Program-made: the position numbers and the translations under genes | Shown here: positions 10,422 to 32,000 of the stretch, in pieces | How the letters are laid out: each line of letters starts with the position of its first letter | Position numbering within the stretch: position 1 is the first letter of the stretch | Notes under the pieces: generated by a model | What the model was told of the DNA's origin: nothing | The model's database searches: none | Seen by the model: the letters and a program-made list of their open reading frames with translations, nothing else | Assembly (NCBI RefSeq): GCF_000014785.1 | Contig: NC_008340.1 | Location: 150,001-182,000 of the forward strand | Reading direction: 5' to 3' | Source of the DNA: Alkalilimnicola ehrlichii MLHE-1 | Lineage (GTDB): Bacteria; Pseudomonadota; Gammaproteobacteria; Nitrococcales; Halorhodospiraceae | DNA: 32,000 nt

Positions 10422-10424
10422 GGC

Positions 10425-11633
10425 CTAGCCCCGCCTCCCCGGCACGGCCGGCAAGGGGTGTTCGGCCAGCGCCTGATCGTAGACCCTCATGTAGCCCTCC
10501 ACCATGGCCTCCATGCTGAATACCGCCTCCGCCCGGGCCCGCGCGGCCTCGCCCTCGCGCTGCCGCCGTTCCGGGTCGTCCAGGTAGGCCTGGAGGTGCC
10601 GGGCGAGGGTTGACGGATCGCCTGCCGGGACCAGCGTGCCGGTCTCGCCGGGCCGCACCAGGTCCGGGTTGCCGCCCACCTCGGTGGCGACCACTGGCAG
10701 CCCGCAGGCCATGGCCTCCAGGACGGTGTTGCAGATGCCCTCGGCGAGTGACGGCAACACGAACAGGTCCAGGGCGCGCATCACCGCCGCCACATCGTCC
10801 CGGGCGCCGGGCAGCCAGGCCTGATCCGCCACCCCGGCCTCCGCCAGCCGCCGGGCGACGCGCTCGCTCAGGGGGCCGTCGCCCACCAGCACCAGCCGCA
10901 GGCGGGGGAAGCGGGCGGGTGCCCGTTCGCGCAGCGCGATGAAGGCATCAACGAGATCCTCCGGGGCCTTGACCGCCTGCATGCGCATCACGCTGCCCAC
11001 CACCAGGCTGCCCTCCGGCGCGAAGCCGTCCGGCAGTGGCGAGGCCTCGTCCCGACGGCGGGGCCTGAAGCGGTGGGTGTCCACACCGTTGCAGACGTGG
11101 TGCAACCGCCCCTCCGGCACGCCGATGGCACCGGCCAGGTAGTCCAGCTGCTGGCGCGACAGGGCGATATAGCGCCCCACCAACGGTCGGGCCAGGCGGC
11201 GCATCAGGCGGTGTTTGGTGCGGGCGCCGTCGAGATCGCCGATATCCCAGCCGTGCTCACCGTGGATGCGTGCCCGCACGCCGGCCGCCGCGGCGGTGGC
11301 CTGGGCCTCCAGGGTGGCGAGGTTGCGGGTGTGGACGATGGCCGGGCGCAACGACCGCAGCAGCCGGTGCAGGCGCCGATGCACCCCCAGGTCCTTGCCC
11401 TCGCGCTTGTGCAGGGCGTGCAGGCTCACATCATCGCGGTGGATGCGCTGGCTGAAGTCGGTGTACCGGGTCATGCAGACGATGGCGTGGCGGTAGCGCT
11501 CGGCCGGCATGTGGTTGATCAGGTTGACCAGGCCGTTCTCCATGCCGCCCACGTCCAGGCGGTGGATGATATGGGCCACCAGCGGGCGCTCGTCGCCCGG
11601 GGCCGCCGTTGCCAGGGGGCGGGCCGCGCTCAT
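10425..11633 (-). CDS. Sugar transferase, PEP-CTERM/EpsH1 system-associated (stp2-like GT-B glycosyltransferase)
   Basis: 402-aa ORF. HIIHRLDVGGMENGLVNLINHMP is the hallmark N-terminal motif of this family as I recall it. C-terminus has EGICNTVLEAMACGLPVVATEVGGNPDLV. ATGA overlap with xrtA (11630..11633). Confidence 0.85.
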   Translation of the reverse strand: MSAARPLATAAPGDERPLVAHIIHRLDVGGMENGLVNLINHMPAERYRHAIVCMTRYTDFSQRIHRDDVSLHALHKREGKDLGVHRRLHRLLRSLRPAIVHTRNLATLEAQATAAAAGVRARIHGEHGWDIGDLDGARTKHRLMRRLARPLVGRYIALSRQQLDYLAGAIGVPEGRLHHVCNGVDTHRFRPRRRDEASPLPDGFAPEGSLVVGSVMRMQAVKAPEDLVDAFIALRERAPARFPRLRLVLVGDGPLSERVARRLAEAGVADQAWLPGARDDVAAVMRALDLFVLPSLAEGICNTVLEAMACGLPVVATEVGGNPDLVRPGETGTLVPAGDPSTLARHLQAYLDDPERRQREGEAARARAEAVFSMEAMVEGYMRVYDQALAEHPLPAVPGRRG

Positions 11634-13204
11634 GGTCCCGCCACGCCGTCGAGCAGGCGGAGCGCCTGGGGCAGGGCCTGCGCCGCGTACTGCGCCAATG
11701 CGGCCTCGGCCTCCGCGGGGTCGTTGCGGTAGTCGGCGTAGAGGACCACCAGGGCGGCGTCGTCCCGCCCGCCCAGCAGGCGGCTGAGGGCCTCTCGTGC
11801 CTTGACCTCGTGGCCGCTGGTGGTCAGCCGGCCACCCACCCAGTACCAGCGCCAGGCCACCACCCGGCGGCCATCCGGGCCGGAGAGCAGCACCCGGTCG
11901 CCCTGCCGGTCGATGCCGGGCACGGCGGTCCGGCCGCCGCTGTGCTGTCGCCAGTCGTCGCGGTGACGGCCGGCCAGGGTGTTGGCCCAGCCGACCATGT
12001 TGCCGTGGCGGTGCTGGGCGCGATAGTAGTCGATGTGGAGGCCAACGGCGTGCCCGGCCTCCTCCTGGACGACCAGGCCGCCGCGGCTGGCGCGGGCGTT
12101 ACGGTAGCCGGGGGTCCAGGGCTCGGCGTCGGCCTCGCTCGCGGCCTGCCAGCCCTCGACCAGCAGCGGGCCACTGCCCAGGCCCTGCACTTCGCCCAGG
12201 TCCCGGTGGTTCATCCAGCCGGCATAGAGTGGGCCGCTGACAGTGAGCAGCAGCGCCAGGGCGGTGGCGGTGACCAGGCGCCCGGTGCGGGGCGCGGGCT
12301 CGGCTACCCCGGTGCCTGGCGTCTTGTCCCCGCTGTTCTGGCCTGTGGACAGGTGGTCTTCCCGCCAGAGGGCCCCGATCAGGAACATCAACAGGATGAC
12401 CACCCCGAAGAAGACCCAGCCATAGAGTAGGTGGTCCACCCCGGCGGCCAAGCGCATGTCGCTCAGGTGGCCGATCATCACGATGCCGTAGGCGCGCAGC
12501 CAGTTGGCAACGATGGGCACGAGGATGGCGATGGCCACGAAGATCAGCCGCCGGGTCCAGCTTCGGTACATGAGATAGGCGAACAGGGTGCCCAGGGCCA
12601 CCGAGGCGATCAGGTAGCGCACGCCGCTGCAGGCGGCCACCACCGACCAGCGGCCGGTGGGCAGGTCGAAGAACAGGCCGTCCCGGTAGACCGGGACCCC
12701 GGTGAGGCGGATGGCGCCCACCGTGAAGTCGGCGGTCCAGATCATCATCGGCTCCACCATGAATTCGCCGAAGGGTACGGCGAACAGCAGGTAGGCCAGC
12801 GGGAACTGCAGCCGGCGGGTGATCTCGCCGCCGAGCACCAGCCAGACCAGGGCCGGGACCATCAGCACGGCGGCGAACTGGCGCACCGAGATGACATCCA
12901 CCAGCTCGCCCATCACCCACATCAGGGTGATCAGCACCAGCGGGATGACGGCCAGCAGGCAGGGCCGGGGCTGCAGAGACGCCAGCTCATGGCGCAGGCG
13001 GAAGACCAGGAAGGCCACGATGGGGACGATGAGAAACCCGTGGGCGAAGGTCTCCGAGCGCTGCCAGGTCTCCACCATGCTGGTGAAGGTGGGGAAGAAC
13101 GCCACCAGCAGCGCGGTCAGCGCTACCGCCATGGCGGTCAGCGCCCGGGGCCAGCCCGGTGCCGGGTGCACCGCCCCGGCGCCCTGCGACCACTCAACGG
13201 CCAT
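11630..13204 (-). CDS. xrtA: Exosortase A (XrtA/EpsH) fused to an EpsI-family domain
   Basis: 524-aa polytopic ORF. Exosortase catalytic signatures AACSGVRY (Cys192/Arg196), VANWLRAYGIVMIGH (Asn233/Arg236/His246) and WQRSETFAHGFLI. After a linker and an extra TM helix (aa ~307-325, nt ~11630..12286) comes an EpsI-like domain with AWRWYWVGGRLTTSGHEVKA. Confidence 0.9.
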   Translation of the reverse strand: MAVEWSQGAGAVHPAPGWPRALTAMAVALTALLVAFFPTFTSMVETWQRSETFAHGFLIVPIVAFLVFRLRHELASLQPRPCLLAVIPLVLITLMWVMGELVDVISVRQFAAVLMVPALVWLVLGGEITRRLQFPLAYLLFAVPFGEFMVEPMMIWTADFTVGAIRLTGVPVYRDGLFFDLPTGRWSVVAACSGVRYLIASVALGTLFAYLMYRSWTRRLIFVAIAILVPIVANWLRAYGIVMIGHLSDMRLAAGVDHLLYGWVFFGVVILLMFLIGALWREDHLSTGQNSGDKTPGTGVAEPAPRTGRLVTATALALLLTVSGPLYAGWMNHRDLGEVQGLGSGPLLVEGWQAASEADAEPWTPGYRNARASRGGLVVQEEAGHAVGLHIDYYRAQHRHGNMVGWANTLAGRHRDDWRQHSGGRTAVPGIDRQGDRVLLSGPDGRRVVAWRWYWVGGRLTTSGHEVKAREALSRLLGGRDDAALVVLYADYRNDPAEAEAALAQYAAQALPQALRLLDGVAGP

Positions 13205-14447
13205 GACTCGCCTCCAGCGCCAGGTCGCCGGCGACTCCCGGTGCCGCCTCTTCGCCGTCCAGGAGCGCGTCGAGCTGGGCCAGGTTGCGATCCCAGTCGT
13301 AGTCGGCGAGCACCCGCTCGCGCGCCGACTTTCCCAGGATCGGGTCGGGGTCGGTCAGTTGCGCGGCCACCCGGGTGGCGAAGGCCTCCGGCTCGTCCCA
13401 CGCCAGCAGCAGGTCCTCGCCGGGGCGGGCGGTGAGCCCCTCCAGCGCCTGGGGGGTGGCCACCACCGGCCGGCCCAGGGCCATGGCCTCCAGTACCTTG
13501 TTCTGCACCCCGCGGGCGATGCGCAGCGGTGCCACCGCCAGCGCCGCGTGCTGAATCCAGGGGCGCACGTCGTCCACGAAACCGGTGACCGTGACGCCGG
13601 GGCGCTGGGCCAGCGCCAGCACCCGCGGCGCCGGCCGGGAGCCCACCACGTGGAATTGCAATCCGGGGAGCCCGGCCTGCAGCCGGGGCAGGACCGCCTC
13701 GGCGAACCAGCAGGCCGCGTCCACGTTGGGCCAGTAGTCCATGGCCCCGGTCAGCACCACGGTGCGGGTGCCGGGTGGGTAGGGCGAGGGGCGTTGCGGG
13801 TCGGGGGCGAAGAAGCGGGCGTCGACGCCGTTGTTGAGGGCGTGCACCCGGCCGGTGCTCTCCGGGGCGAAGCCGCGGAAGCTCTCCGCCTCGGCCGGCG
13901 AGACGAACAGACTGGCGTCACTGGCGGCGGCCAGGCGGCGCTCGTAAGCCAGCAGCCGGCGGCCCTCGCGGCGATAGAGGGCGCTCATGGGCCAGCGCTT
14001 GCTGGCGGCGTACTGGGTCCACTTGTCCGAGTCTACGTCCACGAAGTCCACCACCCGCAGCAGCTCGCCGGCCCTGTCGGGCAGGTACTGGCCCATGGCC
14101 GAGGAGAAGACCAGCGCCCGGCGGATGCGGTGGCGCGCGAGGGTGTCGTCCACCCAGTCCTGGAGGGTGCGGTCGCGGTACCAGGGCAGGGTCAGCGGCT
14201 CGCCGGTGAGCAGCCCGGTGAGGGCCCGGGTGCGGGCCCGGCTGGCGGGGAGCGGACGGGCGCAGACGCTGGCGCAGAGTCGTTCCAGCTCCGGCACGTG
14301 GGCCTGGTCCGCCGGGTCGTCCACGAAGGTGCCCAGGTGTACCCGGTAGCGCCCGGCCAGGTGGCGCAGGATATGGTAAGAGCGGATCTTGTCGCCCTTA
14401 TTGGGGGGCCAGGGGATGCGGTGGACCAGAAACAGCACGTCTTCCAT
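13194..14447 (-). CDS. Sugar transferase, PEP-CTERM/EpsH1 system-associated (stp1-like GT-B glycosyltransferase)
   Basis: 417-aa ORF. LFLVHRIPWPPNKGDKIRSYHILRHL is the hallmark N-terminal motif of this family. C-terminal GVQNKVLEAMALGRPVVAT. Confidence 0.85.
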   Translation of the reverse strand: MEDVLFLVHRIPWPPNKGDKIRSYHILRHLAGRYRVHLGTFVDDPADQAHVPELERLCASVCARPLPASRARTRALTGLLTGEPLTLPWYRDRTLQDWVDDTLARHRIRRALVFSSAMGQYLPDRAGELLRVVDFVDVDSDKWTQYAASKRWPMSALYRREGRRLLAYERRLAAASDASLFVSPAEAESFRGFAPESTGRVHALNNGVDARFFAPDPQRPSPYPPGTRTVVLTGAMDYWPNVDAACWFAEAVLPRLQAGLPGLQFHVVGSRPAPRVLALAQRPGVTVTGFVDDVRPWIQHAALAVAPLRIARGVQNKVLEAMALGRPVVATPQALEGLTARPGEDLLLAWDEPEAFATRVAAQLTDPDPILGKSARERVLADYDWDRNLAQLDALLDGEEAAPGVAGDLALEASHGR

Positions 14448-21848: not shown

Positions 21849-22421
21849 ATGAACGTAGAAGAACTGGCTGAAGAACTGGCCGATTTTTGGGCCTCAGCGC
21901 TGGTGGAACGCGACTGGGCGGGTCGGCTGGAGCTCATGAACCGGATCCACGAGCAGTTGTATAAGGATCTCGAGGATGAGCGCACCTTCCGTCAGGTCTC
22001 CCTTCATTTCGTGGCCGCCGCCATCCATCGATTGGGCGATCCGCCGGTGACGTCGGATGCCCAGGCCGAAATCTACGCCCAGTCCGCCGACGAGGCCCAT
22101 TGCCAGGCGGCCCGGCTCTGGTGGAAGCATGGTCGTGGCGGGAACGAGGCCGGTGAAGCGGCGGGCGAGGAAAGGCGGCGGTATCAGCGCCGAGTGGTGG
22201 ATGAGCCGAGCCTGGTGTGGATCGGGGAGCACACGGTGGCCTGCCGTCTGGTGGACCTGTCGGCCGGCGGCGCCCGTGTGACCGCCTTCGCGACGGACCT
22301 TGGTGTGGGCACACAGGTGCGGGTGGCCATGCCGGATGGCGAGGTGCAGCCGGCCAAGGTGGTACACGCCAATGCCTGCAGCGCGGGGCTGCGTTTTGAG
22401 CCGGTACAGCGGGCGGCGTGA
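21849..22421 (+). CDS. PilZ-domain (c-di-GMP-binding) protein with an uncharacterised N-terminal domain
   Basis: ORF 21798..22421 trimmed to ATG 21849 (MNVEELAEELADFW...), with an AAGGGGA SD 5 nt upstream. The C-terminal ~70 aa carry both PilZ signatures, RRRYQRR (RxxxR) and DLSAGGARV (DxSxxG). Confidence 0.7.
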   Translation: MNVEELAEELADFWASALVERDWAGRLELMNRIHEQLYKDLEDERTFRQVSLHFVAAAIHRLGDPPVTSDAQAEIYAQSADEAHCQAARLWWKHGRGGNEAGEAAGEERRRYQRRVVDEPSLVWIGEHTVACRLVDLSAGGARVTAFATDLGVGTQVRVAMPDGEVQPAKVVHANACSAGLRFEPVQRAA

Positions 22422-22681
22422 CTGCGCGCGGGTTGGCGGGATAGGGGTGTGGACGGGTGTTGAATGTGCGGAAAGTGGTAAGGACCCTGCCTGATGCCGG
22501 GGGGTACATGCCACGTCGTGCTAAAGATGCCCCTGTTTTTAGTCGTTTTATCGCAGGGACTAACCGTATAGTCTTAGCACTCTGGCTGCGCTTGCGGCCG
22601 ATGCAGGGGGGAGGGTCACCGGACTTGCGGTCCGCCGACGACGCCCTTCTGGCCTTGGGTCGAACCGGTGAACCAGATGCG

Positions 22682-23395
22682 ATGAACAATTTCACACACC
22701 AGGTGGTTCTGGCGGATTGCGCCGCACCCCGGCGTGACCACTTCCGGCTGCGCCATCAGGTCTTCTGCCAGGAGTATCGCTTTGAGCCGCCGGAGCAACA
22801 TCCGGAGGGGCTCGAACGGGATGCCCACGATACCCAGTCCGTCCATTTCCTCGTCGGCCCACCGGACCCGGCATCTCGGGTTGCTACACCCTGGGTCGGC
22901 GCCATGCGGCTGGTCCGCCCCGCGCCCCTGGCATTACCGATGAAGGGGGTGCTCTGCCCTGATGGGGTAGCGGCTGGTGGCTTGGATGGCCGTCACCGCT
23001 CGATCCTGGAGGTCTCCCGCCTGCTGCTCCGGCCCGAGGCCCGGGGTGGCCGCTCGCCGGTGATGATCTACCTCCTGTGCCGTGCCGCTTGGGCCTATGC
23101 CATGCAACACGGGTTTGAGGAGCTCTACTTCATGGTCACGCCCGCCCTGGCCCGGTTCGTGCGCGGCCAGGGGTTACCCCTTCAGGTTTTTGCGCCCCCG
23201 GTGGATCACCGCGGGGTCCGGTTGCCCTGTCGGGTTTCCACCACCGACCTGGGCGCGGGGCTGCGCGTCTGGCGTGGTCGTTTACCCGGCCCGGTCCCGG
23301 CGACCCCATACCTGAGTTATGCCGAGCACGTGGCGAGGCCCGAGGCGGCCGGGTTTTTGGGAGCGGGCGAGTCATGGGCCGTCCGTATGGCTTGA
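22682..23395 (+). CDS. PEP-CTERM/exosortase system-associated acyltransferase, LuxI-fold / N-acyl amino acid synthase-like (divergent paralog 1)
   Basis: ORF 22457..23395 trimmed to ATG 22682 (MNNFTHQVVLADCAAPRRDHFRLRHQVFCQEYRFE...). Retains the motif series FRLRHQVFC, LERDAHD (ExDxxD), GAMRLVRP and LEVSRLLL (ExSR), shared with paralog 2 and with LuxI-type synthases. Confidence 0.75.
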   Translation: MNNFTHQVVLADCAAPRRDHFRLRHQVFCQEYRFEPPEQHPEGLERDAHDTQSVHFLVGPPDPASRVATPWVGAMRLVRPAPLALPMKGVLCPDGVAAGGLDGRHRSILEVSRLLLRPEARGGRSPVMIYLLCRAAWAYAMQHGFEELYFMVTPALARFVRGQGLPLQVFAPPVDHRGVRLPCRVSTTDLGAGLRVWRGRLPGPVPATPYLSYAEHVARPEAAGFLGAGESWAVRMA

Positions 23396-23439
23396 GCGAG
23401 ACCGGGGTTGGCCGATGACCTCCCCGACAGGAGCGAACC

Positions 23440-24195
23440 ATGTCTGATGCGCCTTTGGCCGAGGCCTTTGAAGCCTACTTTGACTACTCGCTGGCCCGCG
23501 GTGATGAGCAGGAGGAGATTCACCGGCTGCGCTATGACGTCTATTGCCGTGAGTTCGGCTTCGAGCGGGAGGAGGACTGCCCCGGGGGGCTGGAGCAGGA
23601 TGAGTTCGATGCCCTCTCATGGCACGGGCTGCTCCGCCACCGTGGCACGGGACGGGCCGCCGGCTGTGTGCGGGTGGTGCCCGCCGACGCCGGGGCACCG
23701 GGTGCCGCCCTGCCCATCGAGAAGCACTGCGGGGAGAGCTTCTTTCACCCGGAACTCCGGCCCGATCTGTTGGAGCGCGAACACGTTTGCGAGGTTTCCC
23801 GGCTGGCGGTGCATGGGGTGTTCCGCCGTCGGCGCGGTGAGTCGAAGACCCCGTTGGGTGACGTGGACGGCCTGGAAATCCCGGCAGAGCATTACCGGAC
23901 CTTTCCCTTGATGGCGGTGAGCCTGTTCATGGCCGCCACCGCCCTGACCGGGTTGACCGGTAAGCACCATGTATTCGCCATGATGGAGCCCCGGCTGGCA
24001 CGCCTGTTGAGCCGCAGCGGATTGGTGTTCGTGCAGGTGGGTGATGTGCTGGACTACCATGGGCTGCGTGCGGCCTTCTATATTCATCGGGACAACGCTG
24101 TACGCGAACTGAAACAGTCCGCGATGCTGAACCGCCTCTACCAGCGGGCGCTGGAACAACTTGGGGAGGGCTTCTACGCCACGACCACGGCCTAG
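23440..24195 (+). CDS. PEP-CTERM/exosortase system-associated acyltransferase, LuxI-fold / N-acyl amino acid synthase-like (paralog 2, family-typical)
   Basis: 251-aa ORF with an AGGAG SD 6 nt upstream. Motifs: HRLRYDVYCREFGFE, LEQDEFD, GCVRVVP, CEVSRLAVHGVFRRRRGE, MEPRLARLL. Confidence 0.8.
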   Translation: MSDAPLAEAFEAYFDYSLARGDEQEEIHRLRYDVYCREFGFEREEDCPGGLEQDEFDALSWHGLLRHRGTGRAAGCVRVVPADAGAPGAALPIEKHCGESFFHPELRPDLLEREHVCEVSRLAVHGVFRRRRGESKTPLGDVDGLEIPAEHYRTFPLMAVSLFMAATALTGLTGKHHVFAMMEPRLARLLSRSGLVFVQVGDVLDYHGLRAAFYIHRDNAVRELKQSAMLNRLYQRALEQLGEGFYATTTA

Positions 24196-24216
24196 GGAGT
24201 CGGGCTCGCCCCCTAC

Positions 24217-24820
24217 GTCACTGCGAGGAGGCGAAGCCGACGTGGCAGTCTACCGCTCTGGATCGCCGCGGGCCTCCGGCCCTCGCGATGACGGGGATGG
24301 CGCCCCCACCGTCACTGCGAGGAGCGAAGCGACGCGGCAGTCCAGGCGCCGCATGGATCGCCACGGGCCTTCGGCCCTCGCGATGACGGGGGAAGGCCTC
24401 CGGCCCTCGCGATGACGGAGAGGAGGCCTCCGGCGCTCGCGATGACGGGGATGGCGCCCCCACCGTCACTGCGAGGAGCGAAGCGACGCGGCAGTCCAGG
24501 CGCCGCATGGATCGCCACGGGCCTCCGGCCCTCGCGATGACGGAGAGGAGGCCTGCGGCCCTCGCGATGACAGGGATGGCGCCCCCACCGTCACTGCGAG
24601 GAGCGAAGCGACGCGGCAGTCCAGGCGCCGCATGGATCGCCACGGGCCTCCGGCCCTCGCGATGACGGAGAGGAGGCCTGCGGCCCTCGCGATGACGGGG
24701 ATGGCGCCCCCAACGTCACTGCGAGGAGCGAAGCGACGCGGCAGTCCAGGCGCCGCTTGGATCGCCACGGGCCTTCGGCCCTCGCGATGACGGGGGAAGG
24801 CCTCCGGCCCTCGCGATGAC
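24217..24820 (+). repeat. Mosaic tandem array of 76-77-nt imperfect-palindrome (hairpin) elements with short half-elements and 18-nt linkers (BIME/REP-like)
   Basis: Long units (GTCACTGCGAGGAGCGAAGCGACGCGGCAGTCC...GGATCGCCACGGGCCTCCGGCCCTCGCGATGAC) at 24217-24292, 24311-24387, 24465-24541, 24590-24666 and 24715-24791. Short units (...GGCCTCCGGCCCTCGCGATGAC) at 24388-24416, 24417-24446, 24542-24571, 24667-24696 and 24792-24820. Linker GGGGATGGCGCCCCCACC at 24293-24310, 24447-24464, 24572-24589 and 24697-24714. The blocks 24465-24589 and 24590-24714 are 123/125 identical. Confidence 0.9.
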
Positions 24821-24881
24821 GAAGGTGGGTGCGCTCGCAACGATGGTTTCTTCACCGCTTCCCGGATGCAGGGAGCCAGCG

Positions 24882-25784
24882 ATGGCAGGGTTTGATTACC
24901 GGACCGCCTTCACCCGCAACGTGGGCTGGGTGACCGAAGAGGAGCTGCAGCGCCTGAGGCGGGCGCGGGTGGCTATCGCCGGCCTGGGTGGCGTCGGCGG
25001 AGCCCATCTGCTCACACTGGCGCGCCTGGGTGTCGGCGCCTTTCACATCTCCGACTTCGACCACTTCGAGTTGCACAACATGAACCGTCAGGCCGGGGCC
25101 TGCATGAGCCGGTTGGGCCAGCCCAAGGTCGAGGTCCTGGCGGAGATGGCCCGCGACATCAACCCCGAACTGGACCTGACCCTGTTTCCCGAGGGCGTGG
25201 GCCGGGGGAACCTGGCAGACTTCCTGGACGGGGTCGATGTCTACGTGGACGGCCTGGATTTTTTCGCCTTCGAGGCCCGCCGGCAGGTGTTCGCAGAGGT
25301 GGCCCGCCGGGGTATCCCCGCCGTCACGGTGGCCCCCCTGGGCATGGGCGGGGCGTTGCTTAACTTCGACCCGCAGGGCATGAGCTTCGACGCCTATTTC
25401 GACCTGCGCGACGGGCTCTCCGATGAGGACCTGGCGCTGCGCTTCATGATGGGCCTGGCCCCGGCCATGCTGCACATGGGCTACCTGGCCGATGCGGCGG
25501 CGGTGGATCTGGGCGCCCAGCGAGGGCCTTCCACCCCGATGGCCTGCGACCTGTGTGCCGGCATCATGGGCACCGAGGTGCTCAAGATCCTGCTGGGTCG
25601 CGGGCGGGTGGTCTGGGCCCCCCGGGGGATGCACTTTGACGCCTACCGGCAGCGCCTGGCTCACACCTGGCGCCCCGGGGGCAACCGCAACCCCTTGCAA
25701 CGGCTGCTGATGGCCATCGCCCGGCGGCGACTGGCGAAACTGCGCACGGCCCAGCGGCCGGCGCAGACTGGAGGTGCACGATGA
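24882..25784 (+). CDS. ThiF/MoeB/HesA-family (E1-like) adenylyltransferase
   Basis: ORF 24816..25784 trimmed to ATG 24882 (MAGFDYRTAFTRNVGWVTEEELQRL...), with a GGGAG SD 6 nt upstream; the upstream codons lie in the repeat array. Nucleotide-binding motif VAIAGLGGVGGAHLLTLARLGVG, then ISDFDHFELHNMNRQ. One CxxC (ACDLCAG). Confidence 0.8.
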   Translation: MAGFDYRTAFTRNVGWVTEEELQRLRRARVAIAGLGGVGGAHLLTLARLGVGAFHISDFDHFELHNMNRQAGACMSRLGQPKVEVLAEMARDINPELDLTLFPEGVGRGNLADFLDGVDVYVDGLDFFAFEARRQVFAEVARRGIPAVTVAPLGMGGALLNFDPQGMSFDAYFDLRDGLSDEDLALRFMMGLAPAMLHMGYLADAAAVDLGAQRGPSTPMACDLCAGIMGTEVLKILLGRGRVVWAPRGMHFDAYRQRLAHTWRPGGNRNPLQRLLMAIARRRLAKLRTAQRPAQTGGAR

Positions 25785-26590
25785 GCGAATGGTGGCGTGG
25801 CCGGTTTCTCGCCGGTGGCGTTTTGATCCTGGCCCTGGCCGGGCCGGTAGCTGCCGACGAGGAGGCGGGCCGGGCCCTGGCCCAGGCGGTCTATGACCGG
25901 CCGGATGGCGACGACGCAGTCACCCGCGGCCGCATGGTGCTCGGCGGCGAGGGCCGGCGTGAGCGGGTGCGTGAGAGTTATGAATACCGCCTGGACGGCG
26001 ACGACGGCGAGAGCTGGAACCTCATCCGGTTCACCCACCCCGCCAACATCGCGGATACCGGGTTGCTGGTCCACAACCGGCCGGACGACGCCAGCGACCA
26101 GTGGCTGTTTCTGCCGGCGGCCCAGCGGGTGCGCCGGATTAGCAGCGAGAACCGGGGCGGCAGCTTCGTGCAGTCGGAGCTCTGGTTCGAGGACCTGGAG
26201 GACCGCGAGCCCCACGAGGACACCCACCGTCTTCTGGGGGAGGACCACTACCAGGGGGTGGAGGTCAAGCTGCTGGCGAGCGTCCCTGTCGACCCCGATA
26301 ATTCGGTCTATAGCAAGCGGCTGAGCTGGGTGCATCCCGATACCCTGATCCCGCTGCGCATCGACTTCTACCAGTCCGGCGAGGAGCCGGTGAAGCGCCT
26401 GACGGTGGATCGCATCGAGCGGATTCAGGGGTACTGGACAGTGATGCGCAGCACCATGGCCGACCTGCGCCGCGGCCGGGAAACCACACTGGAAGTCGAG
26501 GAAGTGGTGTATGACCAGGGACTGCCCCGTGACCTGTTCACCAGCCGGGCCCTCTCCGACCCGACTCTGGAGCGTGACTATCGCCCCTGA
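25781..26590 (+). CDS. Outer-membrane lipoprotein-sorting protein family (LolA-like fold), periplasmic
   Basis: 269-aa ORF with a GGAGG SD and an ATGA overlap with the ThiF-like stop. Signal peptide MSEWWRGRFLAGGVLILALAGPVAA/DE. Family-typical core DQWLFLPAAQRVRRISSENRGGSFVQSELWFEDLEDRE. Confidence 0.75.
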   Translation: MSEWWRGRFLAGGVLILALAGPVAADEEAGRALAQAVYDRPDGDDAVTRGRMVLGGEGRRERVRESYEYRLDGDDGESWNLIRFTHPANIADTGLLVHNRPDDASDQWLFLPAAQRVRRISSENRGGSFVQSELWFEDLEDREPHEDTHRLLGEDHYQGVEVKLLASVPVDPDNSVYSKRLSWVHPDTLIPLRIDFYQSGEEPVKRLTVDRIERIQGYWTVMRSTMADLRRGRETTLEVEEVVYDQGLPRDLFTSRALSDPTLERDYRP

Positions 26591-28007
26591 GCGCGAGCGC
26601 ACGCATTGGACCGGCTTCGTGTTGTCCTGTGTCATCCTGGCGCTGCTGTTGGCCGTGCTACTGACGGCCCCCGCCGCCGCAGAGGACGTGCTGATCTTCG
26701 GCGAGCCGGACCCGGACGAGCCGGAACCGCCGGAGGCGGAGGCCGCCGAGATGCCCTCCCCCTGGGACACCCGCATCGAGCGCGGCCTGCTGGAGCTGGG
26801 CCAACTGGCCGCCAACCGGCGCACCGCCGATTTCAGCCACCACGGTCGGGCCGAGTTCCGCGCCGGCCGCACGCTGGCCGGAGACTGGGAGCTGCGCCTG
26901 GGCGCCCGCCTGGACGGCCACTGGCAGGGCGGGGGCGAGCGCTCCGGCGTCTCGCGGTTGGACGCCGACTACGCCGAGAACTGGCTGCGTTACCGGGGCC
27001 GCGATTGGCGGCTCACCGTCGGGACCCAGCGGGTACTCTGGGGGCGGGTGGATGAGATCCCGCCCACCGACCGCCTGAGCACCAAGGACCTCACCCGCTT
27101 TGCGCTGGACGAGATGGTGGACCGGCGACGGACCAATCCCGCTGTCCGCCTGGAGTTCTACCAGGCCGGCTGGGCGGTGGACCTGCTGTTCCTGCCGCTC
27201 TTCCGCCCCGCGGAGCTGCCCGACCGGGACAGCGTCTGGCATCCGGTGGACCGCGAGCGTGGCCGGCTCTTCGGCCTCCCGGCGGACCCCGCCCTGGCAC
27301 CCTTCATCCGTGACGCCCGCATCGACGACGATGTCTCCGGCGATGGCGATGGCGGGGGCGGGGTGCGCCTTAGCCGCGGCGGCGCCGGTGCGGACTTCGC
27401 CCTCACCCTCCAGCGTGCGCGCCACTCCCAGCCCCACTACCGGGTGGACGACGCCACCCGCGCCGCCCTGCTGGGCGCGGGCCCGCCGCCGGATCGGCCC
27501 ACGTTGCATGCCGAGCACCCGCGCACCTGGGTGGTGGGCGGCGACCTGGCCACGGAACTGGGCGCCTGGACCCTGCGTGCCGAGGCCGCCTGGCTCAGTG
27601 ACGTGCCGGTCACCCGGGCCGATGACCTGCGCCAGCGGACGGTGGCGGGTTTTGACTGGGTGCTGGGCGTGGAGGGCTTTCCCGGGGATCGCGACTTCCG
27701 CACCACCCTGCAGGTGGCCGGGCAGCACCTGGACGGTGCCGGGGGGGTGCTGGAGGCGCGCGAGGCCTACTACCTGACCGGCGAACTGGAAAACCCCTTC
27801 GCCGACCACCAGTGGCGGGCCCGGGTGCGCTTCTCCGCGGGGCTCGACCGCCGCGATGTCTATCTGAACCCGGAACTGGCCTGGATCGGCTTCGAACCCC
27901 ACGAGTTCTACGCCGGCCTGCACTGGTTGGACGGGCGTGATGACACCGCTGGCGGGTTTTACCGGGACAACCGCATGCTGGTGCTGGGCTGGCGGGGACA
28001 GTTCTGA
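26574..28007 (+). CDS. Putative outer-membrane beta-barrel protein (family not recognised)
   Basis: ORF 26511..28007. The start is uncertain: ATG 26511 has a GAGGA SD but overlaps the upstream gene by 80 nt; GTG 26574 and GTG 26619 are alternatives. Hydrophobic signal sequence FVLSCVILALLLAVLLTAPAAA/ED, amphipathic strand-like repeats, and a C-terminal ...LVLGWRGQF (terminal Phe, an OM-barrel signature). Confidence 0.6.
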   Translation: MTIAPERERTHWTGFVLSCVILALLLAVLLTAPAAAEDVLIFGEPDPDEPEPPEAEAAEMPSPWDTRIERGLLELGQLAANRRTADFSHHGRAEFRAGRTLAGDWELRLGARLDGHWQGGGERSGVSRLDADYAENWLRYRGRDWRLTVGTQRVLWGRVDEIPPTDRLSTKDLTRFALDEMVDRRRTNPAVRLEFYQAGWAVDLLFLPLFRPAELPDRDSVWHPVDRERGRLFGLPADPALAPFIRDARIDDDVSGDGDGGGGVRLSRGGAGADFALTLQRARHSQPHYRVDDATRAALLGAGPPPDRPTLHAEHPRTWVVGGDLATELGAWTLRAEAAWLSDVPVTRADDLRQRTVAGFDWVLGVEGFPGDRDFRTTLQVAGQHLDGAGGVLEAREAYYLTGELENPFADHQWRARVRFSAGLDRRDVYLNPELAWIGFEPHEFYAGLHWLDGRDDTAGGFYRDNRMLVLGWRGQF

Positions 28008-30262
28008 TGCGCTGGCTGCTGGACCGCCCCCGTCTTGCCCTGGCCGTGCTCGCGCTGCTGGTGCTGGGGCCGGGGCCGATGCTGCTGCAGGTCAACCTGG
28101 ACAACGCGCCGGAGGCCTATTTCCCGCTGGACGCCCCGGCAGTGGTGCTGGACAACGAGCTGCGGGAGGAATTCCCCCAGGATCAGGTGCTGGTGGCGCT
28201 GTTCGAGGGGGAGCACCTGTTCGAGGCGGATTTCCTTGGCCGGCTGCACGCCCTCGCCGAGGCCCTGGAGGGCAAGGAGCGGGTGGAGCGGGTGCTCGGC
28301 CTGACCAGCACCGACCACATCCGCGCCACGGCGGACGGCTTTGCCGTGGAACCGCTGGTGGACGCCTCCGCGCTGGACCGGTTCGACCCCGCGGGCTGGC
28401 GCGCGCGGGCGCTGGGCGACACCTTTGCCCCCGGCCTGATTGTCGCCCACGACGGGGAGGCCACGGCCCTGGTGGTCCGCCCCCACGTGCTGGAGGACAG
28501 CCTGCAGCGCCTGGAGCTGGAGCAGTCGCTGCGCCGCGCCATCAAGGCCCACGGCCTGAGCGCGGAGCTGACCGCCATCGCCGGCCATGTGGCGCTGGAC
28601 GTGGCCCAACTCCGGGCCATGATCGGCGACCTGGCCCTGCTGGTGCCCGGCACCATGGGCATCGGCCTGCTGCTGCTCTGGTGGTTGTTCCGGCGCTGGC
28701 TGGTGGTGGGGCTGGCCGCGGCCACCATCAGCGCCGTCACCGGCTCGGCGCTTACCCTGCTGGTAGTCACCGGCAAGCCCTTCACCCTGATCACCGCCAT
28801 CATGCCGCCGCTGCTCACCGCGCTGACGGTGGCGATGATGATGCATTACTTCAACGCCGTGCTGCACGCCGCCCAGCGCGGTTACACCGGCCGCGCCCGG
28901 GTGGAGGCGGCCTTGCAGGCCGTGGCCCGGCCCACCCTGTTCATGGCCCTGACCACCGCCGCCGGCCTGGCCTCGCTCAGCGTCAGCCCCATCCGCCCCA
29001 TCGAGGCCTTCGGCCAGGTCTCCGCCTTTGGGGTGCTGGTGGCCGCCGCCTGCGTACTCGGGCTGCTGCCGCCGATCCTGGCCCGGTATGATCGCGGCCC
29101 CTGGGTGCGGCAGCAGCGGGGCATGCGCCGGCTCGACGGCTTCCTGCGGCTGGCCGCGCACCTGGCGGTACGCCGGGCCGGCTGGGTGGTGGCCGCGGCG
29201 GTGCTGGTCTTCGCTGTCGCCATCCCGCAGATCCGCCACGTGGAGGTGGAAACCGATCTTTACGCCTTCTTCGACGAGGGCCACGAGATCACCCGCGCCA
29301 CCCGCCAGGTGGAGGAGCGCCTCGCCGGGGTGATGGCCATGGAGGTGGTCTTCGACGGCCCCGACTGGGACAGCCTGATGGCGCCGGAGCGGCTGCAGGC
29401 CATCCACGCGGTGCAGGCCTGGCTGGATGCCCGCCCGGAGGTGGATTACAGCCTGTCGCTGCCGGATCTGGTGGCGGAGATGCACTGGGCCTTCAACGAG
29501 GAGGACCCGGACTACCGCGCCGTGCCCGACAACGAACCGCTGGTCGCCCAGTACCTGTTCATCTACGACGGCCAGGACCTGTGGGACGTGGTGGACCGCG
29601 ACTTCACCCGCAGCCGGCTGTTGCTCAACCTCAACGCCACCGGTGCCCAGGAACTCAATACCCTGATGGCTGACCTGCGGGGCCACCTGGAGGCCGAACC
29701 GCCGGCCGATCTGGCGTGGGATATCGCCGGTATGGGCCGGCTGTTCGCGGATCAGGAGCGGCTGCTGATCCAGGGGCAGTTGCACAGCTTGATGGTCGTG
29801 GTGGCGCTGCTCGCCGTGCTGATGCTCCTGATGTGGCGGTCCGTCTCCGTGGCCGCCGTCAGTATGGTGCCCAACCTCACCCCCATCGTGCTCATCTTCT
29901 CGCTGATGGGTCTGCTGGGTATCTGGCTGGACATGGCCACCGCCATGATCGCCAGTGTCGCGGTGGGGATCGCCGTGGACGACACCATCCACATCCTCCA
30001 TGCTTACCTGCGCCGCCGGCGCGCCGGCAGCCCGGCGGCCTGGGCGGTGGCCCGCAGCTTCCGCCAGAGCGGGCGGGCGGTGACGGCCACCACCCTGGTG
30101 TTGATCGCCCAGTTCCTGCTGGTGGCCCTGTCGGACTTCCAGCCCACCCAGAGCTTCGGCCTGCTCACGGCCTTCGGGCTGGCAGCGGCGCTGGTGTACG
30201 ACCTGCTGGTGCTGCCGGCAGTGCTGGTGCTGCTGAGCCGGGTCCAACGGTTGAAAGAATGA
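28007..30262 (+). CDS. MMPL / RND-superfamily inner-membrane exporter (HpnN-like lipid transporter architecture)
   Basis: 751-aa ORF; the start shares a base with the upstream stop (TGATG 28005..28009). Two repeats of one TM + periplasmic loop + a five-TM bundle (e.g. LALLVPGTMGIGLLLLWWLF..., MVVVALLAVLMLLMW...PNLTPIVLIFSLMGLLGIWLDMATAMIASVAVGIAVDDTIHIL). Confidence 0.85.
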   Translation: MRWLLDRPRLALAVLALLVLGPGPMLLQVNLDNAPEAYFPLDAPAVVLDNELREEFPQDQVLVALFEGEHLFEADFLGRLHALAEALEGKERVERVLGLTSTDHIRATADGFAVEPLVDASALDRFDPAGWRARALGDTFAPGLIVAHDGEATALVVRPHVLEDSLQRLELEQSLRRAIKAHGLSAELTAIAGHVALDVAQLRAMIGDLALLVPGTMGIGLLLLWWLFRRWLVVGLAAATISAVTGSALTLLVVTGKPFTLITAIMPPLLTALTVAMMMHYFNAVLHAAQRGYTGRARVEAALQAVARPTLFMALTTAAGLASLSVSPIRPIEAFGQVSAFGVLVAAACVLGLLPPILARYDRGPWVRQQRGMRRLDGFLRLAAHLAVRRAGWVVAAAVLVFAVAIPQIRHVEVETDLYAFFDEGHEITRATRQVEERLAGVMAMEVVFDGPDWDSLMAPERLQAIHAVQAWLDARPEVDYSLSLPDLVAEMHWAFNEEDPDYRAVPDNEPLVAQYLFIYDGQDLWDVVDRDFTRSRLLLNLNATGAQELNTLMADLRGHLEAEPPADLAWDIAGMGRLFADQERLLIQGQLHSLMVVVALLAVLMLLMWRSVSVAAVSMVPNLTPIVLIFSLMGLLGIWLDMATAMIASVAVGIAVDDTIHILHAYLRRRRAGSPAAWAVARSFRQSGRAVTATTLVLIAQFLLVALSDFQPTQSFGLLTAFGLAAALVYDLLVLPAVLVLLSRVQRLKE

Positions 30263-30528
30263 AGCCAGTGGGGGTTGTCGGCCGGCTTTACAGCGATGGG
30301 TGATCGATAACCGACTGGTTTGTCGAGATTTTCCTGGGCCTCTGTGCTGCAGGCCCCGTTGCCCCCGGAATCTCCCCCGATTCGCTGTCAATCCGCTTTA
30401 CAGACTCCGTGCTTTCTCCGTCAGGGATGCGCTGGGACAGACCTAATTCCGGGTGGCATCTCCAGGAAGGTCGTTTGTCGCCAATAAATTCAGTCACTTG
30501 TGATGCGCTTCTGGATGATTGTTCATCT

Positions 30529-30544
30529 TGGCATGGTGTCTGCT
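30529..30544 (+). promoter_or_regulatory. Candidate sigma-54 (RpoN) -24/-12 promoter for the PEP-CTERM gene
   Basis: TGGCAT-GGTGT-CTGCT against the consensus TGGCAC-N5-TTGCW. The GG (30530-31) and GC (30542-43) are exactly 12 nt apart as required. It lies about 90 nt upstream of ATG 30633 in a GC-poor non-coding stretch. Confidence 0.5.
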
Positions 30545-30632
30545 TCTAGTGAACGACAAGAGGTGGTTTGCCGGCCTTAGGGCCGAACCCGCGATGGGTT
30601 CATCGCACTACATTGATCATCAGGAGAGGCTC

Positions 30633-31610
30633 ATGAACACAAAAAGACTCATGCTCGCTTCGCTTTGCGCGGGCACCTTCGCCTTCGGCGCGGGCGCTGC
30701 ATCGGCGGCGGAGATCATCGACTTTGATATCGACCTGGATGCCACGGCGGATTTCAGCGGCGGGGTTAGCGATGTTCGGCGTATCCAGTTCGACTTGAAT
30801 ACCCAGACCTTTCAATATGTGCAGGATCCGCTGAACCCCGTCCAAGTTGGGGATGTATTCTTCGACCGCGGTTATGGCGATGCCTCTGCGTACCGGACCT
30901 CGGGCGGTGGTTCCGCCGTTCAAGAGCCCGGAGGAGACTTTTTGGGCATTACCTACTCCATGGGGCTGCTATGGGATGAGCTCCGCGGGGTGATTACCTC
31001 GGCGGGTGCCAATGCCGCCGGTGATTGGGTGGTGACCGCCGACTACACCTCGGTGGGTCCCAACAACTTCCAGTTGTTCGTCGCGGACCTCAACCCCGGG
31101 TATGGCCAGGACTATGACGGGGCCGCCGCCCACTTCTCGGGGGGCGAGCAGGTCATGGAGATGGCGTTGGTGCAGGGTGACAGTATCCTCGAATTCGAAG
31201 GCGGTCCGGCTGGGGATTTTGTCGAGGGGACATTCACCTTCGAGTTCCAGGTGATTGACGTGTTGCCGGGCTTCTGGTTCACCAGCGATGGCGAGGACTT
31301 CGCCGATCTGATCGAGGATGACGAGGGGGCGCCCACCTTCATCGTCAGCGCCTTCGCCAGCGCCGGTACTATCCAGGAGCCGCCGCCCGAGACCTTCTTC
31401 GGCGATGACGCTAATAGCGACGCGTTCGGCGACGAGCGGGAGGGCCAGACCCTGTTCAGCGAGACCCAGTCCACCCACGATGGCAGCCTGCGCTTCGCGG
31501 TGCCGGAGCCGGGTACCCTGGCGCTGATGGGCACCGCTCTGCTGATCCTCGGTGGCCTCCTGGGTGTGGGTGGCATCCGCCGCCGCACCGGGTCGGCACA
31601 AGCGGCCTGA
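30633..31610 (+). CDS. PEP-CTERM sorting-domain protein (exosortase substrate), acidic secreted protein
   Basis: ORF 30519..31610 trimmed to ATG 30633, with an AGGAGA SD 5 nt upstream. Signal peptide MNTKRLMLASLCAGTFAFGAGAASA/AE. The C-terminus VPEPGTLALMGTALLILGGLLGVGGIRRR is the PEP motif + TM helix + Arg cluster. Confidence 0.85.
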   Translation: MNTKRLMLASLCAGTFAFGAGAASAAEIIDFDIDLDATADFSGGVSDVRRIQFDLNTQTFQYVQDPLNPVQVGDVFFDRGYGDASAYRTSGGGSAVQEPGGDFLGITYSMGLLWDELRGVITSAGANAAGDWVVTADYTSVGPNNFQLFVADLNPGYGQDYDGAAAHFSGGEQVMEMALVQGDSILEFEGGPAGDFVEGTFTFEFQVIDVLPGFWFTSDGEDFADLIEDDEGAPTFIVSAFASAGTIQEPPPETFFGDDANSDAFGDEREGQTLFSETQSTHDGSLRFAVPEPGTLALMGTALLILGGLLGVGGIRRRTGSAQAA

Positions 31611-31672
31611 AGCAACCGCTGTAGGGCGCTATAATAGCCCAGTAGTTACCCGGTAAGCGTAGTGACCGACCT

Positions 31673-31704
31673 GAAGGGCCCCTCCCGGGGCCCTTCGTTT
31701 TTTT
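31673..31704 (+). terminator. Rho-independent terminator
   Basis: Perfect 10-bp GC-rich stem GAAGGGCCCC / GGGGCCCTTC with a 4-nt loop (TCCC), followed by G + T7. It lies 63 nt after the PEP-CTERM gene stop. Confidence 0.85.
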
Positions 31705-31838
31705 AGGTTACCTGTTCTTCTGTCGATGGCACCGGCTTGCCCTCACACCCGCCGCTCCGATGGCTCCGGATCCTCCGCTTCCTCCATTGCGAGCGCAGCC
31801 CCTGTCAGTCAGAGTAAGGGCTGAAGGCTTCCCCCGCC

Positions 31839-32000
31839 GTCATCGCGAGGGCCGAAGGCCCGTGGCGATCCAGGGCGGTAGACTGCCACGTCGGCTTCGC
31901 CTCCTCGCAGTGACGGTGGGGGCGCTCGCAGTGACGTGCCGGGCCTCGTCATTGCGGAGAGCGAGCCCCCTCACCCCTGTCATTGCGAGGAGCGGGCCCC
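31839..32000 (-). repeat. Inverted copy of the 76-nt hairpin element plus further half-elements; cluster continues past the window end
   Basis: 31839-31914 is the reverse complement of unit 24217-24292 with 73/76 identity. It shares that unit's variant core (GCCGACGTGGCAGTCTACCGC) rather than the majority core. It is followed by GGTGGGGGCGC (reverse complement of the array linker) and by GTCATTGCG(A/G)G half-sites at 31948-31960 and 31979-31994. Confidence 0.85.

Follow-up and report, generated by a model that had tools for sequence, protein, structure and literature searches.

A 32,000-nucleotide stretch of the Alkalilimnicola ehrlichii MLHE-1 genome (contig NC_008340.1, positions 150,001 to 182,000; hereafter the window) carries, divergent from an operon for exopolysaccharide (EPS) and the exosortase XrtA, a run of + strand genes for two candidate N-acyl amino acid synthases (NAS1 and NAS2), a ThiF-type enzyme, a LolA-like periplasmic protein, a predicted outer-membrane barrel and an inner-membrane transporter of the resistance-nodulation-division (RND) kind. 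On balance, we favour the view that these genes make up two joined units within an XrtA/PEP-CTERM/EPS locus, one for the synthesis and cyclisation of an N-acyl amino acid and one for lipid export. The genes, overlaps, repeats and promoter listed in the original prediction, which was made from the window's letters, are all present, with small corrections to coordinates. Gene coordinates are those of the open reading frame (ORF) list, and the sister strain referred to below is A. ehrlichii CP184336.1 (locus L171). The genes of the two proposed units are:

22682-23395, + strand: NAS1 (TIGR03694 104.2 bits; Acetyltransf_5 57.9; FeeM 27.2)
23440-24195, + strand: NAS2, predicted PEP-CTERM/exosortase-associated N-acyl amino acid synthase in an OxzA-like position (TIGR03694 200.8 bits)
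24882-25784, + strand: stand-alone ThiF-type enzyme, predicted ATP-dependent cyclase of N-acyl amino acids, of the TyzB or OxzB N-domain type (Pfam ThiF 143.7; PRK08223 498 bits)
25781-26590, + strand: periplasmic LolA-like protein, 269 aa, with a type I signal peptide and no lipobox (PF17131 195 bits)
26574-28007, + strand: predicted outer-membrane beta-barrel, 477 aa, remotely like DUF1302, Wzi and porins, with a GTG start at 26574 (P0001), a signal peptide and C-terminal GWRGQF
28007-30262, + strand: MMPL/HAE3-like RND inner-membrane transporter, 751 aa (Pfam MMPL 81.1 bits, cutoff 20.5)

The ThiF-type protein, read from the ATG at 24882 as in annotated protein P0121, is 300 aa long. It matches PRK08223, an NCBIfam equivalog titled 'hypothetical protein', with 498 bits, and PRK14851, the ThiF-oxidase fusion family, with 319 bits covering the ThiF half only. 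Its adenylation motifs (GxGGxGG, D60, N66, N68-R69-Q70, K82 and D123-x-x-D126) are invariant across its clade, in keeping with the original prediction that a ThiF-like protein would activate a carboxylate by adenylation. By sequence, the nearest solved relative is TcdA, a cyclodehydratase that is also the model behind the OxzB mechanism. An AlphaFold2 model (predicted local distance difference test score, pLDDT, 87.4) has an E1-like fold that resembles ThiF, MoeB, MccB, PaaA, AclA (PDB 9egb) and TcdA about equally, so that the fold search does not discriminate among them. A housekeeping identity as ThiF, MoeB or TcdA was rejected, the TIGR02356 model giving 85.8 bits against a required 275 and the MoeB model 79.8 against 266.

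We scanned metagenomes with the ThiF clade as seed, counting the loci with enough sequence. A nitroreductase-superfamily protein of the Acg/Rv1355c C-terminal type is encoded within 300 nt downstream of ThiF in 39 of 61 such loci; in at least 11 loci ThiF and the oxidase form a single ORF, 650-690 aa long, and the window enzyme is 61-68% identical to the ThiF half of these fusions. A synthase gene lies within 300 nt of ThiF in 24 of 58 metagenome loci, and somewhere in the locus in 39 of the 58. The synthases encoded directly 5' of the fused ThiF-oxidase ORFs pass the TIGR03694 model and are 44-45% identical to NAS2; one such locus (L129) reads, in order, TIGR03694 synthase (218 bits), TIGR03694 synthase (178 bits) and fused ThiF-oxidase (PRK08223 440 bits). 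A sensitive search of 1.84 billion cluster representatives returned 435 ThiF relatives at E <= 1e-30; among the best 150 of these 435, 81 are at least 600 aa long and 44 are stand-alone. Pfam assignments among the representatives revealed ThiF-nitroreductase, nitroreductase-ThiF, synthase-ThiF, methyltransferase-ThiF-FeeM and methyltransferase-ThiF-nitroreductase fusions, and the synthase-ThiF fusions thereby provide Rosetta-stone evidence that both enzymes act together. PRK14852 was also considered as a synthase-ThiF fusion and set aside: the synthases do not match that model, and the real fusions are those found by Pfam. Class I methyltransferase domains occur fused to or beside members of the ThiF clade (P0284, P0316 and P0383; L083 11563-13122; L085 12005-12880), which suggests methylated derivatives of the product in some lineages.

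In Halorhodospira halophila, the PilZ, synthase, synthase and ThiF genes form one operon that is convergent to the LolA-like, barrel and RND genes. Because of this layout, and because synthases and oxidases are its steady neighbours in metagenomes, ThiF is predicted to belong functionally with the synthases and not with the exporter genes, among which it had originally been grouped.

Both acyltransferases are, judged by their TIGR03694 scores, N-acyl amino acid synthases of that type, which bears out the original assignment. NAS2 is a member of the family (200.8 bits against a cutoff of 111.95), and NAS1, at 104.2 bits, falls just under the same cutoff and is not a member by it. The family member lies beside exosortase genes: the window and its flanks contain XrtA, EPS genes and families associated with PrsT. 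Relatives keep the second, divergent synthase paralogue in tandem. Neither synthase scores as a LuxI-type acyl-homoserine lactone (AHL) synthase: the TraI models give 18.8-23.9 bits where 250-292 are required, and the matches of the two to Pfam Autoind_synth are marginal (26.4 and 19.6 bits, cutoff 24). A 2011 study by Craig reportedly tied N-acyl amino acid synthases to PEP-CTERM/exosortase loci without offering a mechanism. To judge from the title of Craig et al., as cited in PMC11072679, the original statement that this acyltransferase family is known only by genome context is out of date. A Methylomonas mutant in an exosortase-type synthase lost a polysaccharide band (PMC11072679), and the literature searched gave no other phenotype for such a synthase. 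Upstream of NAS1, a block (ATGCCCCTGTTTTTnnTnGTTTTAT, 22525-22560) is kept in Alkalispirillum (L086), the rest of the intergenic region having diverged; this block may be a promoter or a binding site. A sigma-54-like site in the same region (TAGCAC...CTGC at 22575) was discarded, since its GG is missing and Alkalispirillum has no conserved counterpart.

By sequence family, the synthase and ThiF steps match those of a characterised pathway, the acyl-oxazolone route. For OxzA, which like OxzB occurs in Pseudoalteromonas rubra and other proteobacteria, De Rond, Asay and Moore reported N-acylation of tyrosine or phenylalanine (bioRxiv 10.1101/2020.06.11.147165). In Mycobacterium tuberculosis the steps are split among the acyltransferase TyzA, the ThiF-type cyclase TyzB and the O2-dependent flavin oxidase TyzC (PMC10404671), and TrzA together with TrzS (Rv1355c) produces tryptazolones (PMC12856293). 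The original statement that no described pathway has this composition therefore does not hold: an N-acyltransferase with a ThiF-type cyclase, with or without a flavin oxidase, is the acyl-oxazolone pathway of these three reports. What survives is the general logic of an N-acylated amphiphile, an activated carboxylate, transit through the envelope and association with exosortase; the notion of a wholly undescribed pathway does not.

The window shares with OxzAB, TyzABC and TrzAS the pairing of an amino-acid N-acyltransferase gene with the gene for a ThiF-type, predicted ATP-dependent cyclase, and its ThiF falls in a clade in which most members are either fused to a nitroreductase-family oxidase or have one encoded after them. 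A separate ThiF is a known arrangement, as in TyzB, and the tyz cluster of M. tuberculosis adjoins an MMPL transporter gene, mmpL9, much as the window cassette adjoins its own. Unlike the known systems, however, the window locus and its 10-kb surroundings hold no oxidase gene, there are two synthase paralogues, and the genes lie inside an XrtA/PEP-CTERM/EPS locus, translationally coupled to a LolA-like/barrel/RND exporter.

The genes of this exporter run into one another, with overlaps of 4 bp between ThiF and the LolA-like gene, 17 bp between the LolA-like and barrel genes, and 1 bp between the barrel and RND genes. The LolA-like protein also matches DUF1329, over a short stretch only (34.5 bits, cutoff 23.1), and its relatives in the PDB are solved LolA-like structures (9tp6, 4z48 and 3bk5). 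The barrel protein has no Pfam or NCBIfam family match. Its AlphaFold2 model, made with 27 homologues, has about 18 long strands (pLDDT 88.3; predicted TM-score, pTM, 0.82), and a Foldseek search with that model returned general porins only, at a query-normalised TM-score (TMq) of about 0.42; we predict from this model an outer-membrane barrel without a close solved relative. A few barrel homologues match DUF1302 or Wzi weakly, and PF06980 appears in 1 of 27 relatives (E 3e-4). Many homologues (P0004-P0120) bear an N-terminal SPOR, LysM or AMIN peptidoglycan-binding domain, of which the A. ehrlichii barrel has none; these domains suggest that other lineages anchor the barrel to the cell wall. 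The RND protein scores 156.7 bits against the HAE3 model TIGR00921 (cutoff 351.9), and is weakly similar to solved RND, MmpL and Patched proteins. A hydropathy scan gave seven hydrophobic blocks, of which some could accommodate several helices, as well as two loops of about 170 aa, a pattern compatible with RND topology. Identity as the hopanoid transporter HpnN was rejected (TIGR03480 77.2 bits, cutoff 751.85).

A scan seeded with a barrel-family alignment, covering a single genome of each species, gave 80 loci, from Gammaproteobacteria (Ectothiorhodospiraceae, Chromatiaceae, Sedimenticolaceae, Porticoccaceae and Halieaceae) and Betaproteobacteria (Thauera, Azoarcus, Sulfuricella, Thiobacillus and others). 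Among the 45 full-flank loci, defined as having at least 9 kb on both sides, the LolA-like gene is present in 45, the RND gene in 43, ThiF in 30 and a synthase in 24, and the LolA-like gene adjoins the barrel gene in 76 of 81 loci. LolA-like, barrel and RND genes are thus a conserved triad, and the neighbourhood, when checked in these 45 loci, proved to be conserved beyond this genome. De novo clustering of ORFs placed PrsT (TIGR02917, 683 bits) in 43 of 81 loci, usually directly after the RND gene, and also yielded PrsR, PrsK and an EPS export protein as neighbours. A PEP-CTERM/EPS marker occurs in 38 of the 45 full-flank loci, and a marker, ThiF or a synthase in 41 of them. The order NAS-NAS-ThiF-LolA-barrel-RND recurs in Alkalispirillum and Immundisolibacter, the cassette genes hold the same relative positions in Thioalkalivibrio loci, and ThiF lies directly upstream of the LolA-like gene in 14 loci from two proteobacterial classes, Thauera and Azoarcus included. 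Of the ThiF-seeded metagenome loci, 18 are flanked by 4 kb or more on either side, and 14 of these 18 carry PrsT/R/K or XrtA-EPS markers; judged by such neighbours, within the ThiF clade the oxazolone-type cassette regularly accompanies PEP-CTERM systems as an accessory.

In Quisquiliibacterium and a metagenome-assembled relative (L083 and L085), the locus, next to PrsT, a PEP-CTERM protein and EPS export genes, retains the LolA-like gene, a DUF1302 barrel gene, ThiF and two synthases, but has two FtsX/MacB-type permeases with an ATPase in place of the RND pump. The best matches of these ATP-binding cassette (ABC) parts in L083 are LolC/E, at 80-95 bits (cutoff 362), and LolD, at 215 bits (cutoff 308). 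An exchange of the inner-membrane engine with retention of carrier and barrel is what would be expected for a lipidic cargo that is extracted and passed across the periplasm. The pump, LolA-like carrier and outer-membrane barrel of the original prediction accordingly recur as a unit in which a LolCDE-like ABC transporter can replace the pump, and this fits the route proposed for a lipidic cargo. As an observation apart, the NAS-NAS-ThiF/oxidase operon of L129 is convergent on an HAE1-type (AcrB-like) RND permease (9972-13232), which would be a third kind of pump next to the cassette.

Two known systems resemble the exporter. It shares with the Lol pathway (LolCDE-LolA-LolB) the logic of an inner-membrane extractor, a LolA-fold carrier and an outer-membrane acceptor, and in sister lineages the extractor is itself a LolC/E- and LolD-like ABC transporter; it differs in that the window extractor is an RND pump, the acceptor a barrel of about 18 predicted strands and not LolB, and all Lol models stay below their cutoffs. 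AmeABCD of Castellaniella defragrans, which comprises DUF1302, DUF1329, COG4447 and HAE3 RND proteins and confers monoterpene tolerance (PMC6394551), likewise has an MMPL/HAE3-like RND pump, a LolA-superfamily periplasmic protein and an outer-membrane barrel encoded together. By contrast, the window module has no counterpart of AmeC (COG4447), either within 21.4-32 kb or among the conserved neighbour families; its LolA-like protein is of the short PF17131 type, with 269 aa where the DUF1329 protein has 451 aa; its barrel is only remotely DUF1302-like and outside Pfam DUF1302; and its context is biosynthetic and EPS-related where that of AmeABCD is catabolic.

From the family assignments, fusions, neighbourhoods, pump replacement and predicted folds we infer a substrate, a product, a cargo and a direction of transport. 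NAS2, and probably NAS1 too, would N-acylate an amino acid with a fatty acyl thioester in the cytoplasm, and ThiF would cyclise the resulting N-acyl amino acid by the chemistry shown for OxzB, TyzB and TrzS. Desaturation of the ring substituent depends on a flavin oxidase that is not encoded here, and the product would be a saturated acyl-oxazolone or a derivative of it. The RND pump would extract this amphiphile from the inner membrane, the LolA-like protein would shield it in the periplasm, and the barrel would insert or release it at the outer membrane; a promoter with PrsR boxes and a sigma-54 site would drive the neighbouring PEP-CTERM gene. We propose the synthase/ThiF product as the candidate cargo of the exporter because the ThiF and LolA-like genes overlap, because the two are adjacent in 14 loci, because the whole cassette recurs in Immundisolibacter, and because mmpL9 stands beside tyz.

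Several observations weigh against this reading. Placement of the window ThiF relative to the tested enzymes was judged from NF005901, the Rv1355c/TrzS family model, which it matches with 66.4 bits against a cutoff of 476 (homologous, in another subfamily), and not from direct comparison with the OxzB or TyzB sequences. A tblastn search of the whole window with two oxidase queries (E <= 1e-3) found no oxidase; none lies within 10 kb in the sister strain, Alkalispirillum or Halorhodospira, and none was found in the Thioalkalivibrio or Ectothiorhodospira loci either. With no local oxidase, the pathway may end in something other than a classical unsaturated oxazolone; if the rest of the genome has no oxidase gene either, this may be a saturated, reactive azlactone or a derivative. 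An array of repetitive extragenic palindromic (REP)-like units here, and an insertion sequence (IS) in the sister strain, split NAS2 from ThiF, so that the synthases may not be co-transcribed with the other genes. LolA or barrel genes lie within 8 kb in only 3 of the 18 well-flanked ThiF-seeded loci, so that the exporter is facultative for the ThiF cassette, and some triads stand beside PrsT with neither ThiF nor a synthase within 10 kb, so that the cargo of the triad could be something else. Finally, the sampled loci are phylogenetically clumped, with many from Thioalkalivibrio and Porticoccus, and fewer independent events lie behind these counts than the figures suggest; the pattern nevertheless spans two proteobacterial classes.

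Lol-like sorting would account for some of these neighbourhoods differently, although we consider it unlikely: the triad, or its ABC variant, would move lipid-modified PEP-CTERM proteins or a lipid acceptor outward, and the synthase/ThiF product, possibly a reactive azlactone or an N-acyl diamino acid, would serve as anchor or acyl donor with XrtA. This is the strongest form of the original prediction. It would explain why the triad stands beside PrsT in 43 of 81 loci and with a PEP-CTERM/EPS marker in 38 of 45, sometimes without ThiF or a synthase, and why the ABC variant best matches LolC/E and LolD; the module has PEP-CTERM genes at its flanks in this window as in Thioalkalivibrio and Halorhodospira, and the lost polysaccharide band of the Methylomonas synthase mutant (PMC11072679) points the same way. 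However, ThiF and the synthases have no signal peptides and are predicted to be cytoplasmic, whereas XrtA is expected to act at the periplasmic face; the six-gene cassette of Immundisolibacter has no PEP-CTERM or EPS genes within 10 kb; and the characterised products of the oxazolone pathway are free small lipids.

We regard as improbable, too, a product other than an oxazolone, in which adenylation without an oxidase would lead to a thiocarboxylate, an amide or ester conjugate, or a lactone akin to an AHL signal. The local absence of the oxidase across Ectothiorhodospiraceae loci is consistent with such a product, as are the conserved divergent second synthase, the near-equal likeness of the ThiF fold to ThiF, MoeB, MccB, PaaA, AclA and TcdA, and a single CxxC motif in the ThiF clade, formed by an invariant Cys222 and a nearly invariant Cys225. 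Nevertheless, the window ThiF is 61-68% identical to oxidase-fused ThiF domains and belongs to the same NCBIfam equivalog, the ThiF and MoeB models fall far under their cutoffs, and no small ThiS/MoaD-like partner gene was seen among the annotated neighbours, which were not searched for one systematically.

A dedicated exosortase lipid we think very unlikely; it would be an activated azlactone or N-acyl amino acid, made by the synthase/ThiF pair, that travels by a private Lol-like route of RND pump or LolCDE-like ABC transporter, LolA-like protein and barrel, and that as acyl donor or acceptor anchors XrtA-processed PEP-CTERM proteins or EPS to the outer membrane. We think it equally unlikely that the triad is a general efflux system for hydrophobes or solvents of the AmeABCD kind, or an EPS-related outer-membrane factor, merely co-located with the synthase and ThiF genes. 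In its favour, AmeABCD confers monoterpene tolerance (PMC6394551), and in four full-flank loci the triad occurs without any of the associated genes. Against it, the ThiF gene overlaps the LolA-like gene here and adjoins it in 14 loci of two proteobacterial classes, ThiF, a synthase or a PEP-CTERM marker accompanies the triad in 41 of 45 full-flank loci, and the window module has no AmeC homologue and a barrel outside Pfam DUF1302.

Around the two proposed units, which we continue to read as lipid synthesis and lipid export, the window contains the following features:

706-21498, - strand: canonical XrtA/PEP-CTERM EPS locus, all parts above their NCBIfam cutoffs
21849-22421, + strand: PilZ-domain protein, 190 aa, first + strand gene, divergent from the EPS operon (Pfam PilZ 31.9 bits)
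about 24200-24821, + strand: tandem array of REP-like palindromic units (Tandem Repeats Finder period 125, 3.4 copies, 96% matches)
30285-30293 and 30395-30403, + strand: two GCTTTACAG boxes, matching the TTTACA end of Haft's PEP-CTERM enhancer motif 1
30529-30543, + strand: predicted sigma-54 (-24/-12) promoter, TGGCATggtgtCTGC, 104 nt upstream of the PEP-CTERM ATG
30633-31610, + strand: PEP-CTERM protein, 325 aa, predicted XrtA substrate, with a signal peptide and the C-terminus VPEPGTLALMG...IRRR (VPEPG, transmembrane segment, RRR)
31672-31707, + strand: intrinsic terminator ending the + strand unit, an 11-bp stem, 8 of its pairs GC, and then a T run

The PEP-CTERM protein has weak matches to floc_PepA and other PEP-CTERM models, and its orthologues hold the same position in Thioalkalivibrio. 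Motifs of the sigma-54 type are not above chance in the window (43 found, 39 expected), and we accept the promoter not by motif count but because it is conserved in orthologues: TGGCAC-N5-CTGC stands at -104 to -106 upstream of all 8 orthologous PEP-CTERM gene copies, from seven Thioalkalivibrio loci. The GCTTTACAG boxes lie at about -348 and about -237, offsets that are kept in the Thioalkalivibrio orthologues, where one second gene copy has the proximal box only. This arrangement matches the enhancer and sigma-54 layout of PEP-CTERM genes described by Haft et al. 2006 (PMC1569441). A leader of about 100 nt (30544-30632) is also kept between Alkalilimnicola and Thioalkalivibrio (L004-L012), with blocks GGCCnCCAGGCC, GCGATGGnTnnATCGC and ATTGAnCATCAGGAGA, and may be a structured 5' untranslated region.

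The EPS locus encodes an XrtA-EpsI fusion, the stp1, stp2 and stp3 glycosyltransferases, an amidotransferase, a FemAB protein, a deacetylase and an ATPase, together with a TIGR03016 outer-membrane protein, a tyrosine kinase and a chain-length determinant, these last also above NCBIfam cutoffs. XrtA is joined to its EpsI domain in one 524-aa protein (11630-13204), and a 'hydrolase 2, exosortase A-associated' domain is joined to a family 2 glycosyltransferase in one of 669 aa (706-2715). On the other strand, the 190-aa start of the PilZ protein is taken from the sister-strain annotation. In the barrel-seeded scan a PilZ gene lies 5' of the synthases in 10 Ectothiorhodospiraceae loci, and it is found directly before the synthases across that family (L001, L003-L012, L086 and L171). 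The trzAS locus of M. tuberculosis adjoins genes for turnover of cyclic di-GMP (PMC12856293), and this parallel, with the PilZ neighbour, hints at cyclic di-GMP control of the synthase/ThiF lipid pathway.

The array between NAS2 and ThiF contains 10 copies of a core motif, GGCCCTCGCGATGAC, an eleventh copy of which lies at 31839-31853 on the - strand (0.28 expected by chance). Because the motif recurs outside the array, the array is a dispersed REP-like element and not specific to the module. The core motif is absent from 82 related loci, and an inverted-repeat search of the array at seed 9 found nothing. Interpretation as a functional RNA or a CRISPR-like array was rejected, given the dispersed palindrome, a folding z-score of -0.19 relative to shuffled sequence, and the absence of the motif from relatives. 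The gap between NAS2 and ThiF gathers mobile or repetitive DNA, with the REP-like array here, an IS in the sister strain, where a DDE transposase gene lies between the two (L171 7894-9213), and 34 bp in Alkalispirillum. Short-read assemblies of A. ehrlichii stop near the REP-like repeats (24200-24821 and 31839-31930).

Acyl-oxazolones were found between 2020 and 2025, and the papers that describe them call their biological role unclear. The oxazolone papers we searched do not mention exosortase or PEP-CTERM, and the literature we searched does not link oxazolone genes to exosortase loci or to a LolA-like/barrel/RND exporter, nor the TIGR03694 family to ThiF or oxidase genes or to an exporter; full-text searches pairing exosortase with ThiF, and PEP-CTERM with LolA, returned nothing relevant. 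What looks new is the form without an oxidase and with two synthases, its regular embedding in XrtA/PrsKRT loci, and its coupling to a LolA-like/barrel/RND (or ABC) exporter.

Together, this locus and about 160 related loci suggest that the stories of the oxazolones and of the exosortase-associated synthases are one. An OxzB/TyzB-type cyclase would usually be paired with the exosortase-type synthase, the two lying in EPS, floc and biofilm loci under PrsK, PrsR and sigma-54, and in many lineages this synthase-cyclase pair appears to be joined to a trans-envelope exporter with an exchangeable inner-membrane engine. The uncharacterised LolA-like, barrel and RND or ABC family thereby acquires a proposed function, and oxazolones a testable setting in which they may act as an envelope or biofilm lipid, a signal, or a co-substrate of exosortase. 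Should the dedicated exosortase lipid prove true, orphan oxazolone lipids and exosortase would each gain a missing partner.

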